64,000 bases of DNA, from the NCBI RefSeq assembly GCF_036507355.1, contig NZ_AP027877.1; one strand, given 5' to 3'. The notes below the pieces were generated by a model. That model worked only from the letters and a program-made list of their open reading frames with translations, ran no database searches and was not told the DNA's origin. Positions 3,951 through 43,281 of the stretch are shown here, piece by piece. Each line of letters opens with the position of its first letter. Position 1 is the first letter of the stretch. The DNA comes from Escherichia coli. GTDB taxonomy: Bacteria > Pseudomonadota > Gammaproteobacteria > Enterobacterales > Enterobacteriaceae. Both the position numbers and the translations under genes were made by a program.

Positions 3951-5303
3951 ATGAGTTCTTTAAGTCAGGCTGCGAGCCGTGTGGAAAAACGCACGAATGC
4001 TCGTTACTGGATAGTGGTGATGTTGTTTATCGTCACATCCTTCAACTACGGCGACCGCGCTACGCTTTCTATTGCCGGTTCGGAAATGGCCAAAGATATC
4101 GGCCTTGATCCCGTGGGAATGGGCTATGTGTTCTCTGCCTTCTCATGGGCTTATGTTATCGGGCAGATCCCTGGTGGTTGGTTGCTGGATCGTTTTGGTT
4201 CAAAACGCGTCTACTTCTGGTCGATCTTTATCTGGTCGATGTTTACCTTGCTGCAAGGCTTCGTCGATATCTTTAGTGGATTCGGCATTATCGTTGCCCT
4301 GTTTACTCTGCGCTTCCTGGTCGGGCTTGCTGAAGCGCCATCTTTCCCCGGCAACAGTCGCATTGTTGCGGCCTGGTTTCCGGCGCAGGAAAGGGGAACG
4401 GCGGTGTCGATTTTTAACTCCGCTCAATACTTCGCAACGGTGATCTTCGCGCCGATTATGGGCTGGCTGACGCATGAAGTGGGCTGGTCACACGTCTTCT
4501 TCTTTATGGGCGGTCTGGGCATTGTCATCAGCTTTATCTGGTTGAAAGTCATCCACGAGCCAAATCAATATCCGGGGGTAAATCAGAAAGAGCTGGAGTA
4601 CATCGCCGCGGGTGGCGCGCTGATCAATATGGATCAGTAAAACACCAAAGTTAAAGTGCCGTTCAGCGTGAAGTGGGGGCAGATCAAACAACTGCTCGGG
4701 TCACGGATGATGATCGGCGTTTATATTGGTCAGTACTGTATCAACGCCCTGACTTACTTTTTCATTACCTGGTTTCCGGTTTATCTGGTGCAGGTGCGTG
4801 GGATGTCGATTCTGAAAGCGGGCTTTGTGGCTTCCGTTCCGGCGGTTTGCGGTTTTATCGGCGGTGTGCTGGGTGGGATTATTTCCGACTGGCTGATGCG
4901 CCGCACGGGATCGCTGAACATTGCGCGTAAAACACCGATCGTAATGGGCATGTTGCTGTCGATGGTGATGGTGTTCTGCAACTACGTCAACGTTGAGTGG
5001 ATGATCATCGGCTTTATGGCGCTGGCCTTCTTCGGTAAGGGCATTGGGGCGCTGGGTTGGGCAGTAATGGCAGATACCGCACCAAAAGAGATCAGCGGTC
5101 TTTCCGGTGGCCTGTTCAACATGTTCGGTAACATTTCTGGCATCGTCACGCCAATCGCAATTGGTTATATCGTTGGCACGACTGGCTCCTTTAATGGGGC
5201 GCTGATTTATGTTGGTGTTCATGCCTTAATCGCGGTACTGAGCTACCTGGTGCTGGTGGGCGATATCAAGCGTATCGAGCTGAAACCTGTCGCGGGGCAA
5301 TAA
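3951..5303 (+). pseudogene. gudP: Glucarate/galactarate MFS transporter GudP, interrupted by one in-frame TAA at 4638-4640
   Basis: Track ORFs 3951-4640 and 4656-5303 are in the same frame and together give a full 12-TM MFS protein; only one stop codon separates them. Confidence 0.75.
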
Positions 5304-19410: not shown

Positions 19411-19430
19411 GACTGACTTAACGTCTTAAT

Positions 19431-19461
19431 AAAAAACCCGCTTCTTGAAGCGGGTTTTTTT
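19431..19461 (+). terminator. Rho-independent terminator after eno
   Basis: aaaaaacccgcttcttgaagcgggttttttt. Confidence 0.8.
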
Positions 19462-19465
19462 ATCT

Positions 19466-19828
19466 TCACATTTTGAGTTCAGTAAGCAGAGCGATAACAT
19501 TAATAAATGTTATTCCCACCAGGATAAGTATCCGAACAATTTTTCTGCTATTCCTTACATTGCTGACAAAATCATTATGAGAAATATTGGATGAATATTT
19601 TCGTTGATGGACTTTATAATCCCAAAGAAGATCATTTGCCTCAGGTATTGGGTTAATCAGACTGTAGATGCAAAAGTATACAAACGTATCTAAAGCAAGC
19701 AGTGATGTTATCAGTTGAAATAATTCATCGCCCTGGAAGGCTTTATTAAGCCAAATCATTCCAGCAGCACCGAATAAGCCAAATACAAATTTACTTAATC
19801 GCGGATGATTCGCTAAAATCTTACTCAT
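19466..19828 (-). CDS. Hypothetical small membrane protein (about 3 hydrophobic segments), AT-rich, no recognisable family
   Basis: 120-aa ORF in track; GC visibly below neighbours; function not inferable. Confidence 0.45.
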   Translation of the reverse strand: MSKILANHPRLSKFVFGLFGAAGMIWLNKAFQGDELFQLITSLLALDTFVYFCIYSLINPIPEANDLLWDYKVHQRKYSSNISHNDFVSNVRNSRKIVRILILVGITFINVIALLTELKM

Positions 19829-19863
19829 ATTTTCTTACCTTCCCTGTAATCTGTTTTTAAGTC

Positions 19864-20766
19864 TTACCATCTTCCTGACGCGCCGCCACCGCCGGATGAA
19901 CCGCCGCCACCGCTGAAATTGTCATTGTCGAAAGAGGATGAAGAGGAAGAAGACGATGACGAATGCCAGGAGGCCGAGTTGCTTCTTTCGTAGCGTGACG
20001 GTCGGTTTGCACTACGCATTGAATCACGCACCTTTCTGCCGAAAGGTGTGAAAGCGATAGCTACGACCAGGAATGGAGTGGCGAAACATAATAATGTGGC
20101 AAGAATTCCCCAGCTCCCGCTATATCCAGCGATGGGAAGTACAAAGGCCAGTATTATGGCAGCAAAGCAAATCACTCCCAGCGTTTTGATATATCCTCTG
20201 GCAGAAATAAACGTCAGTACTATCGCCCAGACTAACAGAGCCCACCAACCGCTAAAGGGTAAAGGATGATCGGGCGATGTATTATTGACTAAATCATTTC
20301 CTGATAGTCGGGTTTCAATATCACCAATACCTTGTTGCAAGCCGACAGCAAGGTCGCCCTTTTTAAACGCTGGAATAATACTGTTGCGTATAATTTGCCC
20401 GGACTGCGCATCCGTCAGAATACCCTCAAGTCCGTAGCCAATTTCAATATGTACTGTATGATCTTGCTAGGCAACTACCAGTAAAATACCGTCATCAAGA
20501 TTCTTATGACCGGGCTGCCAACGCTCGAATACCCGCGTTGCGTACTGCTCGATGGTTTCGTCGCCTGTTGTATCAACCACTAACACGACCAACTGTGCGT
20601 GTTTTTTTTGTGTCAGGGCTTTAATCTGGTTGGTCAGGGTGTTTACTTCGCTGTTTGTTAATGTGCCGGTTAAGTCATTCACATACTTGGGTGATTCAGG
20701 TACTGGAATTTGTGTGGCAAACACAGATGAACAGAAGAAAGCCGTAAGGAAGATAAAATTTCGCAT
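19864..20766 (-). pseudogene. ygcG: TPM-domain protein YgcG homolog, interrupted by one in-frame TAG at 20467-20469
   Basis: Track ORFs 20467-20796 and 19864-20340 share a frame; translation through the stop continues the TPM domain (…LLVVA*QDHTVHIEIGYGLEG…); signal peptide start MRNFIF, Gly/Ser-rich C-tail. Confidence 0.7.
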
Positions 20767-22565: not shown

Positions 22566-22777
22566 GAGTTCCCCGCGCCAGCGGGGATAAACCGGAGAGA
22601 GTCCAGTATCAATCCCGCGATCCGCAGAGTTCCCCGCGCCAGCGGGGATAAACCGCCGTTGCGGATCTTGAGTAGTGCCACGTCACCGAGTTCCCCGCGC
22701 CAGCGGGGATAAACCGGGTACAAAAGAGGCCCCATTCTGGCAGGGCTCGAGTTCCCCGCGCCAGCGGGGATAAACCA
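22566..22777 (+). CRISPR. Type I-E CRISPR array: 4 repeats of 29 bp (GAGTTCCCCGCGCCAGCGGGGATAAACCG) and 3 spacers of 32 bp, AT-rich leader upstream
   Basis: Repeats at 22566, 22627, 22688 and 22749 (61-bp period); last repeat ends in A; degenerate repeat remnant near 22867-22888. Confidence 0.95.
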
Positions 22778-23244: not shown

Positions 23245-23368
23245 AACAGGGATAAACCGAACTAGTTAAAGTTTTTATTATGTTCCCTGCATCAGCGGGG
23301 ATAAACCGGACTTGTTATCATTTTTTAAGTTGTCGAACTTATGTTCCCCGCGCCAGCGGGGATAACCA
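23245..23368 (+). CRISPR. Degenerate, vestigial CRISPR array (2-3 mutated repeats, one 32-bp spacer)
   Basis: Partial repeat ending ggataaaccg at 23259, mutated repeats at 23280-23308 and 23341-23368 flanking a 32-bp spacer. Confidence 0.7.
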
Positions 23369-23414
23369 TTCAGGTATGTTCAGGCCGGGCAGTTTCCCGC
23401 CCGGTTTTCCTCAC

Positions 23415-26440: not shown

Positions 26441-27571
26441 ATGAGAAAGGTAACTGAGAATATGCAGGCGACGGCGCAATGTGGCGTTCCGCTGGAGGTG
26501 CTGGAAAACGCGTTGCGTGAAAAAGGTTACACCACGGGGCATTCTCCGCAGTCAAAGCCGCTGGCGCAGATGGGCGGCCTGGTAGCAACCCGCAGTATCG
26601 GGCAGTTCTCCACACTCTACGGCGCAATCGAAGATATGGTCGTTGGTCTGGAAGCAGTATTGGCTGATGGCACCGTGACACGTATTAAAAACGTGCCACG
26701 CCGCGCGGCTGGCCCGGACATTCGTCACATCATCATCGGCAACGAAGGTGCATTGTGCTATATCACTGAAGTAACAGTGAAAATCTTTAAATTCACCCCG
26801 GAAAACAACCTCTTCTACGGCTATATCCTGGAAGACATGAAAACCGGCTTCAACATCCTGCGTGAAATCATGGTGGAAGGGTATCGTCCGTCGATCGCTC
26901 GTTTGTATGACGCTGAAGATGGCACCCAACACTTCACGCATTTTGCCGACGGAAAATGCGTGCTGATCTTTATGGCTGAAGGTAACCCTCGCATTGCGAA
27001 GGCGACGGGCGAAGGGATTGCGGAAATCGTTGCCCGCTACCCGCAATGCCAACGCGTGGACAGCAAGCTGATCGAAACCTGGTTTAACAACCTGAACTGG
27101 GGACCGGATAAAGTGGCTGCCGAACGTGTGCAGATCCTCAAAACCGGCAACATGGGCTTTACTACCGAAGTGTCCGGCTGCTGGAGCTGCATCCACGAAA
27201 TCTACGAAAGCGTTATTAACCGTATTCGTACCGAGTTCCCGCACGCCGACGACATCACTATGCTGGGCGGTCACTCCTCTCATAGCTATCAGAACGGCAC
27301 CAACATGTACTTCGTCTACGACTACAACGTTGTCAACTGTAAGCCGGAAGAGGAAATCGACAAGTACCACAATCCGCTCAACAAAATCATTTGCGAAGAA
27401 ACCATTCGCCTCGGTGGTTCGATGGTGCACCACCACGGTATCGGTAAACATCGCGTTCACTGGAGCAAGCTGGAACACGGCAGCGCGTGGGCGTTGCTGG
27501 AAGGGCTGAAAAAGCAATTCGATCCTAACGGCATTATGAATACGGGTACTATCTATCCGATTGAAAAATAA
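26441..27571 (+). CDS. ygcU: FAD-linked oxidase YgcU homolog, apparently lacking about 100 N-terminal residues of the FAD-binding domain
   Basis: 376-aa ORF begins inside the PCMH-type FAD-binding region; the preceding in-frame sequence is closed by stops. Confidence 0.6.
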   Translation: MRKVTENMQATAQCGVPLEVLENALREKGYTTGHSPQSKPLAQMGGLVATRSIGQFSTLYGAIEDMVVGLEAVLADGTVTRIKNVPRRAAGPDIRHIIIGNEGALCYITEVTVKIFKFTPENNLFYGYILEDMKTGFNILREIMVEGYRPSIARLYDAEDGTQHFTHFADGKCVLIFMAEGNPRIAKATGEGIAEIVARYPQCQRVDSKLIETWFNNLNWGPDKVAAERVQILKTGNMGFTTEVSGCWSCIHEIYESVINRIRTEFPHADDITMLGGHSSHSYQNGTNMYFVYDYNVVNCKPEEEIDKYHNPLNKIICEETIRLGGSMVHHHGIGKHRVHWSKLEHGSAWALLEGLKKQFDPNGIMNTGTIYPIEK

Positions 27572-38219: not shown

Positions 38220-38372
38220 ATGCTAACAAAATATGCCCTTGTGGCAATCATAGTACTGTGTTGTACAGTACTGGGATTCACGCTCATGGTAGGCGACTCG
38301 TTATGTGAGTTGAATATCAGAGAGCGTGGTATGGAGTTTAAGGCAGTTCTCGCTTACGAATCGAAGAAGTAG
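38220..38372 (+). CDS. Hok/Gef-family type I toxin (50 aa)
   Basis: [50 protein letters not shown]: single TM segment then the SLCE..IR…AYES.K signature; AGGGAGG RBS 7 nt upstream. Confidence 0.75.
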
Positions 38373-38761
38373 CCACCACGTGGGGGTAAAACCCCGCGTA
38401 TTGAATTGTGATGGTTTGGTCTCCTGCACCCTTTTTTAAATTTATATTTTTTATGTGAATATATTGTCTCTATTTATTATTATGAATTTCAAATGAAAAT
38501 CATAAATTTATTCACAATATAAATGTTTTATTGGCTGATATATATCACAGATAATTTTTAAAATATGCGTAAATATCCTTTAAGTTTACTGAAGGATAAA
38601 AATATTGTGACTTTCTTTGATTTCTGGGGAAAAACCCGACGCGACGAGAAAGAAGGGGGTGACGACTATCACCTTCTTTGCTGGCATTCGCTGGATGTGG
38701 CCGCGATGGGCTATTTAATGGTTAAAAGAAATTGCTTCGGGCTGGCGGTAATGACTCCAAC

Positions 38762-39265
38762 TTATTGATAGTGTTTTATGTTCAGATAATGCCCGATGAC
38801 TTTGTCATGCAGCTCCACCGATTTTGAGAACGACAGCGACTTCCGTCCCAGCCGTGCCAGGTGCTGCCTCAGATTCAGGTTATGCCGCTCAATTCGCTGC
38901 GTATATCGCTTGCTGATTACGTGCAGCTTTCCCTTCAGGCGGGATTCATACAGCGGCCAGCCATCCGTCATCCATATCACCACGTCAAAGGGTGACAGCA
39001 GGCTCATAAGACGCCCCAGCGTCGCCATCGTGCGTTCACCGAATACGTGCGCAACAACCGTCTTCCGGAGCCTGTCATACGCGTAAAACAGCCAGCGCTG
39101 GCGCGATTTAGCCCCGACATAGCCCCACTGTTCGTCCATTTCCGCGCAGACGATGACGTCACTGCCCGGCTGTATGCGCGAGGTTACCGACTGCGGCCTG
39201 AGTTTTTTAAGTGACGTAAAATCGTGTTGAGGCCAACGCCCATAATGCGGGCTGTTGCCCGGCAT
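38762..39265 (-). CDS. insB: IS1 InsB (expressed as InsAB' by a -1 frameshift)
   Basis: 167-aa ORF overlapping insA in the -1 frame. Confidence 0.9.
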
Positions 39266-39459
39266 CCAACGCCATTCATGGCCATATCAATGATTTTCTG
39301 GTGCGTACCGGGTTGAGAAGCGGTGTAAGTGAACTGCAGTTGCCATGTTTTACGGCAGTGAGAGCAGAGATAGCGCTGATGTCCGGCGGTGCTTTTGCCG
39401 TTACGCACCACCCCGTCAGTAGCTGAACAGGAGGGACAGCTGATAGAAACAGAAGCCAC
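39184..39459 (-). CDS. insA: IS1 InsA
   Basis: 91-aa [26 protein letters not shown]…. Confidence 0.9.
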
Positions 39460-41451
39460 TGGAGCACCTCAAAAACACCATCATACACTAAATCAGTAAG
39501 TTGGCAGCATCACCCGGGCTGGCTGATTATTTTCGTCAATTAGGGATTTCTGACAAGGAACAGGCGGCTCAATTTTTCGCCTGGTTGTTGTGCTGGCACG
39601 ATATTGGAAAATTTGCCCGCTCATTTCAGCAACTTTACCTGCACCCACAACTCAAGGTTCCGGAAGGCGCAAGAAAGAATTACGAAAAGATCTCTCATTC
39701 AACGCTGGGCTACTGGTTGTGGCATCATTATTTAAGTGAATGCGAAGAATTGCTTCCTGCCTCTTCACTCTCTACTCGCAAACTTAAACGTGTAATAGCG
39801 ATGTGGATGCCCATGACTACCGGGCATCATGGTCGGCCCCCTGACCGTATTGATGAACTGGATAATTTTCTGCCTGAAGACAAAGTTGCCGCGCGAGATT
39901 TTCTCCTTGAAATCAAGGCACTGTGTCCGCTCATAGAGATTCCCACATTCTGGGATAATGACGAGGGAGTTGAACTTTTAAAACAACTTTCCTGGTATAT
40001 CTCTGCAACAGTCGTACTTGCAGACTGGACGGGTTCGTCAACGCGATTTTTTCCACGCGTCGCACACCCAATGGATATTAAAGATTACTGGCAGAAAACT
40101 TTAGTTCAGGCTCAAAACGCCTTAACCGTCTTTCCTCCAAAAGCAGAAACCGCACCTTTCACCGGAATTAATACGCTGTTTCCTTTTATTGAGCACCCGA
40201 CACCATTACAGCAAAAGGTGCTGGATCTGGATATCAGCCAGCCAGGGCCACAGTTATTTATTCTGGAAGACGTGACTGGCGCAGGTAAAACAGAAGCGGC
40301 GCTTATCCTGGCGCACAGGTTGATGGCTGCGAGGAAAGCACAGGGTTTGTTTTTTGGCCTGCCAACAATGGCAACGGCCAATGCCATGTACGATCGGCTG
40401 GTCAAAACCTGGCTTGCTTTCTATTCGCCAGAGTCCCGCCCCAGCCTGGTGCTGGCACACAGTGCCCGCACATTAATGGACCGCTTTAATGAATCACTCT
40501 GGTCCGGTGATTTAGTCGGGTCAGAAGAACCGGATGAACAAGCGTTCAGTCAAGGATGTGCAGCCTGGTTTGCCGACAGTAACAAGAAGGCTTTACTGGC
40601 TGAAATTGGCGTCGGCACGCTGGATCAGGCGATGATGGCGGTGATGCCGTTCAAACATAATAATCTGCGGCTTCTGGGGCTGAGTAACAAAATCCTGCTG
40701 GCTGATGAGATCCACGCCTGTGACGCTTACATGTCATGCATTCTTGAAGGGCTGATCGAGCGGCAGGCGCGTGGTGGAAACAGCGTCATTTTGCTTTCTG
40801 CTACGTTATCCCAACAGCAGCGCGACAAACTCGTCGCCGCCTTTGCGCGTGGCACAGAGGGCCAGCAAGAAGCTCCGTTCCTTGAAAAGGATGATTACCC
40901 CTGGCTGACGCATGTCACGAAATCCGATGTGAACTCACACCGGGTAGCGACGCGCAAAGACGTTGAGCGTAGCGTCAGCGTGGGTTGGCTTCATAGTGAA
41001 CAAGAGAGTATTGCGCGTATCGAATCGGCGGTAAGTCAGGGAAAATGCATCGCCTGGATCCGCAATTCTGTCGATGACGCTATTAAGGTTCATCGTCAGC
41101 TGCTTGCCCGCGGCGTCATTCCCGCTTCCAGCCTTTCACTCTTTCATAGCCGCTTTGCTTTTAGCGATCGCCAGCGAATCGAAACGGAAACGCTGGCACG
41201 CTTTGGTAAAAATTGTAATTTAAAAAGATCATCGCAAGTCATTGTTTGTACACAAGTAATTGAGCAAAGTGTGGATATTGACCTGGACGAAATGATCTCC
41301 GACCTTGCCCCCATTGATTTGCTGATCCAGCGAGCGGGGCGATTACAGCGACATATCCGCGATATTAATGGTCAGTTAAAGCGTGACGGAAAAGACGAGC
41401 GTTCCCCTCCTGAATTGCTGATTCTGGCCCCCGTCTGGGACGACGCTCCTG

Positions 41452-41781
41452 GTGACGAATGGTTCGGCAGTGCCATGCGTACGCGCCTTTACAGAGGCCG
41501 CGCTTAAAGTCTCACCAACCGGAAAACAAAACAGCTTTGCCAGCCGTGCCTACGCCTCCTGGGCGCTGGCGGAAAAAGGCACTGTTCAACCGCGTTCTCT
41601 GGCGGCGGCTTTCTATGAACCCATTAATGGTACCCGTCAGTTAGATGTGGCGGTGCAGCGTATTACAACGCTTCGCGAAAACATGAATACGGTCTACGAA
41701 CAGAAGACTGAATGCGCAAGTTTTGACGTGATGAACAAACAGGGAAGCATGAAGGACGTACTGGACTTTATCTGCGCGTAA
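41452..41781 (+). pseudogene. 3' remnant of a cas gene, most plausibly the end of cas7/casC fused out of frame to cas3
   Basis: 109-aa frame ending 10 bp before the cas5 ATG, the position casC occupies in an intact I-E operon; the alternative reading is a frameshifted cas3 tail. Confidence 0.4.
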
Positions 41782-41791
41782 GGGGCGGCTT

Positions 41792-42973
<1,182 letters not shown>

Positions 42974-43069: not shown

Positions 43070-43281
43070 GTGTTCCCGGCGCCAGCGGGGATAAACCGAC
43101 GAGGGGCTCGTTATTCGGGAAATTACAAAAGTGTTCCCCGCGCCAGCGGGGATAAACCGGCCCAGGGATTTGTTCAATCCAGCGTGCCGCTGTGTTCCCC
43201 GCATCAGCGGGGATAAACCGGGCGCACTGGATGCGATGATGGATATCACTTAGAATTCCCCGCCCCTGCGGTAGAACTCCC
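43070..43281 (+). CRISPR. Type I-E CRISPR array next to cas2: 3 repeats GTGTTCCC(C/G)GCGCCAGCGGGGATAAACCG plus a degenerate terminal repeat, 3 spacers of 32 bp
   Basis: Repeats at 43070, 43131 and 43192, degenerate repeat at 43253; 61-bp period; AT-rich leader at 42974-43069. Confidence 0.95.

Follow-up and report, generated by a model that had tools for sequence, protein, structure and literature searches.

Insertion of IS1 into cas genes is an already known, ordinary phenomenon. The cases closest to ours were described by Sheng et al. in 2023 (Nat Commun 14:4366, PMC10359306). In experiments, IS1 insertions into cas genes, including those of the type I-E system of Escherichia coli, rescue cells from CRISPR toxicity, and such insertions also occur naturally. 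The element in those cases is 768 bp long and has imperfect repeats of 23 bp, the arrangement insA-A6C-insB', and a 9-bp target duplication. A duplication of this length was the commonest outcome (78% of events), and GC-rich targets were also documented. The other described system for comparison is the group of degenerate type I-E loci of E. coli between cysH and iap, which have the order cysJIH-hok-cas3-casABCDE-cas1-cas2-CRISPR-iap.

In the present study, we analyzed an IS1 insertion in the cas3 gene within a 64-kb stretch of E. coli DNA, which is called the window below. The locus has the same position, gene order, and repeat sequence as the degenerate cysH-iap loci. The insertion agrees with the cases of Sheng et al. 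in the element and its duplication, in the target class (type I-E cas genes), and in the disruption of the reading frame. It differs from them in that the target was non-functional beforehand, so the scheme in which an IS inactivates immunity is inapplicable, and in that the 9-bp target is unusually GC-rich (8/9).

The window is a part of the E. coli chromosome that extends from around the gud genes and barA, across cysJIH, as far as the hyp genes. It is colinear with strain D8. The housekeeping genes share up to 99.6% identity with those of E. coli. Shigella genomes are rich in IS1, and for this reason a Shigella origin was considered; it was rejected as unsupported on the basis of the single IS1 and the lack of other sizeable repeats in the window, the colinearity with D8, and the identity of the housekeeping genes to those of E. 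coli. Compared with D8, about 1.25 kb is missing from the window at 26455 (ygcW region), and between eno and queE a segment of 445 bp (19419-19864) replaces about 2.1 kb that contains two TPM-domain genes.

The initial annotation, made from the sequence alone, described a complete 768-bp IS1 with both inverted repeats, insA, insB, and the A6C motif, bounded by an intact 9-bp duplication. Reading of the sequence and a scripted check gave the same positions throughout, and all of these parts are present, as follows.

38738-38746: left copy of the 9-bp target-site duplication, CGGGCTGGC, present once in the relatives with an empty site
38747-39514, minus strand: complete IS1 (IS1A type), 768 bp, with the transposase genes on the strand opposite cas3 (scripted sequence check and Pfam)
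38747-38769: right inverted repeat of IS1, 23 bp, insB-proximal, GGTAATGACTCCAACTTATTGAT, matching the other end at 18 of 23 positions
38762-39265, minus strand: insB reading frame, the DDE catalytic part of InsAB' (ORF and Pfam)
39184-39459, minus strand: insA, 91 amino acid residues, GTG start (ORF and Pfam)
39202-39208, minus strand: A6C (AAAAAAC), the predicted -1 programmed frameshift site between insA and insB' (sequence)
39492-39514: left inverted repeat of IS1, 23 bp, insA-proximal, GGTGATGCTGCCAACTTACTGAT, which matches when reverse-complemented
39515-39523: right copy of the 9-bp target-site duplication, CGGGCTGGC

The length and the ends are those of IS1, which is about 768 bp long and terminates in imperfect inverted repeats of about 23 bp. 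The A6C motif sits inside TTAAAAAAC (39202-39210, minus strand), and the insB frame is in the -1 phase relative to insA, consistent with the two-ORF organization with A6C that characterizes the IS1 family. In the Pfam search, InsA matched PF03811 and PF12759 (Zn_ribbon_InsA and HTH_Tnp_IS1), and InsB matched PF03400 (DDE_Tnp_IS1) over its full length (1-131 of 131, E = 2e-78). All 768 bases are identical to those of a copy in E. coli JMK_KBN3987 (NZ_CP180393.1), which is annotated by PGAP as an IS1A-family transposase with programmed frameshift. Judging from this complete identity and from the recent insertion discussed below, the copy in the window is apparently active. Neither a second IS1 copy nor any other sizeable repeated element was found within the 64-kb window.

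The interrupted gene and its upstream neighbor are arranged as follows.

38220-38372, plus strand: ORF of a Hok/Gef-family toxin between cysH and cas3
38565-38746, plus strand: 5' fragment of cas3, codons 1-60 and two bases of codon 61 (ORF; start as annotated in TUM13936)
39522-41481, plus strand: cas3 resuming at the third base of codon 61 and reaching codon 714, with the remainder of the HD domain, the helicase core, and PF22590 (Pfam and comparison with TUM13936)

The ATG at 38565 corresponds to the annotated start in E. coli TUM13936, whose operon is intact. IS1 is placed after the second base of codon 61 (Ala). The interrupted frame enters the end of IS1 and stops at 38768, which gives an ORF of 67 amino acid residues, 61 of them native. 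When 38747-39523 is removed in silico, ...NCFGLA and DYFRQLG... are rejoined in frame, exactly as the initial annotation had proposed as a check. The restored protein contains PF18019 (Cas3_HD) at residues 21-237, PF00270 at 288-355, and PF22590 at 566-672 (Pfam), which is the domain series of a type I-E Cas3: the HD nuclease, then the SF2 helicase core and the C-terminal helicase lobe. Codon 61 lies within Cas3_HD, so the placement of the insertion in the HD domain also holds. More precisely, the insertion comes after the first conserved histidine of this domain and ahead of its H-D dyad (residues 85-86), which we take to be the one in the motif WHDIGKF.

The restored frame is, however, not that of a full-length cas3: the excised ORF ends at codon 721, as against about 899 codons in the same allele family. 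The homology to cas3 stops at codon 714, and past this codon the frame continues out of frame into cas7e sequence, with a stop at 41507. Excision of IS1, as an in-silico 'repair' of the gene, would not yield a functional cas3, and the relevance of the finding lies mainly in correct annotation. The end of the ORF at codon 721 and the missing Cascade genes went unmentioned in the initial annotation.

Comparison with the intact operon of TUM13936 revealed two deletions. The first, of 3.52 kb, fused codon 714 of cas3 to nucleotide 755 of cas7e (junction at about 41481) and took casA and casB together with the C-terminus of Cas3 and most of cas7e. The second, of 1.41 kb, fused nucleotide 86 of cas5e to nucleotide 117 of cas1 (junction at about 41877) and took the whole of cas6e together with most of cas5e and the 5' end of cas1. 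Both junctions show microhomology of just 1-2 nucleotides and no IS. Downstream of cas3, the following parts remain.

41481-41877, plus strand: remnant between the two deletions, cas7e from nucleotide 755 to its end and the first 86 nucleotides of cas5e (Pfam Cas_CT1975 on an ORF of 109 amino acid residues)
41877-42683, plus strand: cas1 without its first 116 nucleotides (ORF, Pfam, and comparison with TUM13936)
42680-42973, plus strand: cas2, an intact ORF of 97 amino acid residues (ORF and Pfam)
43070-43222, plus strand: residual CRISPR array of three repeats and two spacers, adjoining iap (repeat-consensus search)

The locus therefore does not contain the complete set of cas3, casA-E (cse1, cse2, cas7, cas5, and cas6e), cas1, cas2, and array, as casA, casB, and cas6e are absent and cas7e, cas5e, and cas1 are truncated; cas2 and the three-repeat array are the only intact parts. 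A second CRISPR array with four repeats is located at 22566-22777, and two degenerate repeats follow about 500 bp further (23282-23369). The CRISPR arrays were found by the repeat-consensus search and were not reported by Tandem Repeats Finder.

The same deletion architecture was located by an exact-protein look-up of the Cas1 fragment of 287 amino acid residues and the Cas3 of 721 residues. Compared with the other degenerate type I-E loci between cysH and iap, the deletion pair of this lineage was matched only in draft and Logan assemblies; none of 5,426 complete E. coli genomes contained it as one piece.

The initial annotation had also suggested a comparison with isolates of the same lineage that lack the insertion. 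For this comparison, the window minus 38747-39523 was aligned to the IS1-free contigs of this lineage found by the protein look-up, which come from two NCBI assemblies and two Logan assemblies. All alignments were gap-free from end to end.

L005 (GCA_905398585.1, also L015): 12,864 bp aligned, 3 mismatches
L006 (Logan ERR3330519): 7,341 bp aligned, 1 mismatch
L007 (Logan SRR31122001): 7,063 bp aligned, 0 mismatches, insertion site not spanned
L016 (GCA_016660925.1): 5,166 bp aligned, 1 mismatch
L017 (Logan SRR31122001): 3,809 bp aligned, 1 mismatch

Each of the four site-spanning contigs (L005, L006, L016, and L017), which differ from the excised window by 1-3 mismatches, contains a single copy of the 9-mer. 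The mismatch common to these four is at 38381, where the window has T and all four have C. This position, 9 bp past the Hok/Gef-family toxin ORF, is the only window-private base in the compared region. The empty site also occurs in many complete E. coli genomes, where the match is exactly 777 bp shorter than a query that includes IS1.

Two given 9-mers are identical by chance with a probability of 4^-9 (about 4e-6). The flanking pair in the window is a true target-site duplication, because natural relatives carry the single 9-mer and no IS1; the IS1 family duplicates 8-9 bp of its target, which the matching empty site has once. In the strain of the window, the insertion is both recent and derived. 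Recency had been proposed in the initial annotation on the ground that the duplication is intact. We retain the conclusion and replace its ground: the insertion is recent because the relatives with an empty site are nearly identical to the window, whereas an intact duplication is poor evidence for dating because 18 bases carry almost no dating information.

The IS1-free relatives also fix the order of events. They encode the same truncated Cas3 of 721 amino acid residues, the same cas7e remnant of 109 residues, and the same Cas1 fragment of 287 residues. Both deletions are common to L005, L006, and L016, and L017, whose end at about 41650 lies short of the second junction, covers the first alone. 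Since the IS1-free relatives share the deletions, the deletions are older than IS1, and the element entered a pseudogene in a defunct CRISPR-Cas locus. The loss of CRISPR-Cas in this lineage is thus due to the two older deletions, and the insertion should not be counted as a case of IS inactivation of CRISPR immunity.

From these observations, we consider it very probable that IS1 came recently, by simple insertion, from elsewhere in the genome or its plasmids into an already dead type I-E cas3, most likely with neutral effect. Frameshifting that produces InsAB', binding of the terminal repeats, a 9-bp stagger, and gap repair are established IS1 biology. For the insertion in the window, the anatomy, the empty site of the relatives, the order of events, and the position in the domain are shown by the sequences, and we infer the frameshift and the staggered cut in the following way. 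An active IS1 of the IS1A type elsewhere in the E. coli genome or on one of its plasmids would have been the donor for the insertion at codon 61 of cas3. A -1 ribosomal frameshift at A6C would fuse InsA to InsB' and give the DDE transposase InsAB', which would bind both 23-bp terminal repeats and join the 3' ends of IS1 to the target, whose strands would be cut with a 9-bp offset. Two single-stranded gaps would result, and their repair would produce the flanking duplication of CGGGCTGGC. The insertion truncates the Cas3 frame after 61 native residues (67-residue product). The Cascade genes were already gone, and therefore no CRISPR function was left for IS1 to abolish; judging from the gene content, the insertion is most likely selectively neutral.

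Some features count against a simple insertion, namely the GC-rich 9-bp target and the lack of a donor IS1 within the 64-kb window. IS1 prefers A+T-rich targets, and a G+C content of 8/9 (89%) is atypical for it. The 25 bp on either side of the target have a G+C content of 38%, forming a locally A+T-rich pocket, and a promoter region with 12-25% G+C lies about 150 bp upstream.

Alternatively, the insertion might have been selected for switching off CRISPR-Cas immunity, for example to tolerate a targeted plasmid or to escape self-targeting, according to the model of Sheng et al. (2023). The documented rescue from CRISPR toxicity by IS1 in cas genes (PMC10359306) and the occurrence of IS1 within cas3 or next to it in several complete genomes of E. 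coli speak for such selection, but IS1-free relatives that are otherwise nearly identical already lacked casA, casB, and cas6e, the greater part of cas7e and cas5e, the 5' end of cas1, and the C-terminus of Cas3, and no interference activity remained to select against. We therefore regard selection as very unlikely at this site.

It is just as improbable that IS1 is ancestral and was excised precisely from the genomes of the IS1-free relatives by slippage from one 9-bp repeat to the other. This event would leave exactly the single 9-mer that was observed. Precise excision of IS elements between target duplications does occur, but it is very rare, and the empty site is present in at least four separate samples (GCA_905398585.1, GCA_016660925.1, ERR3330519, and SRR31122001). 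Furthermore, three of the four samples are identical to each other across the region, the window has a private SNP, and the filled site was found in no other sequence searched. A left-junction query of 140 bp gave no single-piece full match in the 5,426 complete E. coli genomes, the exact 42-nt junction pattern had 0 matches in species-representative genomes and 0 in JGI metagenome contigs, and an exact look-up of the 67-residue Cas3-IS1 fusion ORF found nothing on record.

An assembly artefact, in which a repeat copy was misplaced in cas3, is extremely improbable: IS1 is a multicopy element, with a median of about 10 places per genome in E. coli, and misassembly classically arises at repeats, but a misplaced repeat would not yield an exact 9-bp duplication at the IS1 termini with flanks colinear to the empty site.

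The IS1 in cas3 is a clean textbook case of simple insertion, for which sister isolates document the empty site, and it could serve as a strain-specific marker within the lineage.

IS1 has entered the same part of the chromosome on other occasions. In complete E. coli genomes, we mapped eight further independent insertions of IS1 to the cysH-hok-cas3 region, in the strains JMK_KBN3987, G3X16-2, XJ5.2, NRZ99027-2, S171-1/EC20-72C-1, PSJ-42, F3, and ES4. In all of them, IS1 is located within, or a short way upstream of, a cas3 of the same allele family as that in the window, and the positions all differ from that in the window, which indicates independent events. Intact 9-bp duplications were found in three (AACCCCGCG, GGTCTCCTG, and TACTGGCAG) and an 8-bp duplication in one. 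The remaining four have no duplication and show an IS1-adjacent deletion or rearrangement, which extends to cas2 in S171-1 and to cysD in F3, lies within hok in PSJ-42, and lies beside a Tn3-like element in ES4. In the case of S171-1, IS1 is at 4079-4846 of the sequence compared and has no target duplication; its far flank is the 3' end of cas2, indicating an IS1-adjacent deletion of the whole cas operon, and IS421 is located just upstream of cas3. The same insertion is present in EC20-72C-1. The IS1 end in these two strains is 12 bp upstream of the site in the window, in the same orientation.

An IS1 hotspot at cas3 was considered and rejected. With about 10 places per genome, 5,426 genomes are predicted to give tens of matches per 3 kb, and 8-10 events are no excess. 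Nor did the 12-bp pair indicate a hotspot, as one such pair among about 10 events in about 2.5 kb has a chance probability of about 0.4. An orientation bias was also dismissed: the common orientation of the eight insertions is an artefact of the search, because the query held IS1 one way and the pieces were joined only on one strand.

We consider it unlikely that the 5' end of this cas3 allele, with its two independent insertions 12 bp apart in one orientation and a very A+T-rich promoter region upstream that may be H-NS-bound, is a preferred landing site of IS1, and that an outward promoter formed as an IS1/cas3 hybrid could transcribe the remnant cas genes. A putative promoter-like match does lie over the IS1/cas3 junction (39501-39530, plus strand), with a -35 TTGGCA in the left end of IS1, a spacer of 18 nucleotides, and a -10 GATTAT in cas3. 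This match is weak (9/12 consensus positions) and points into the cas3 remnant.
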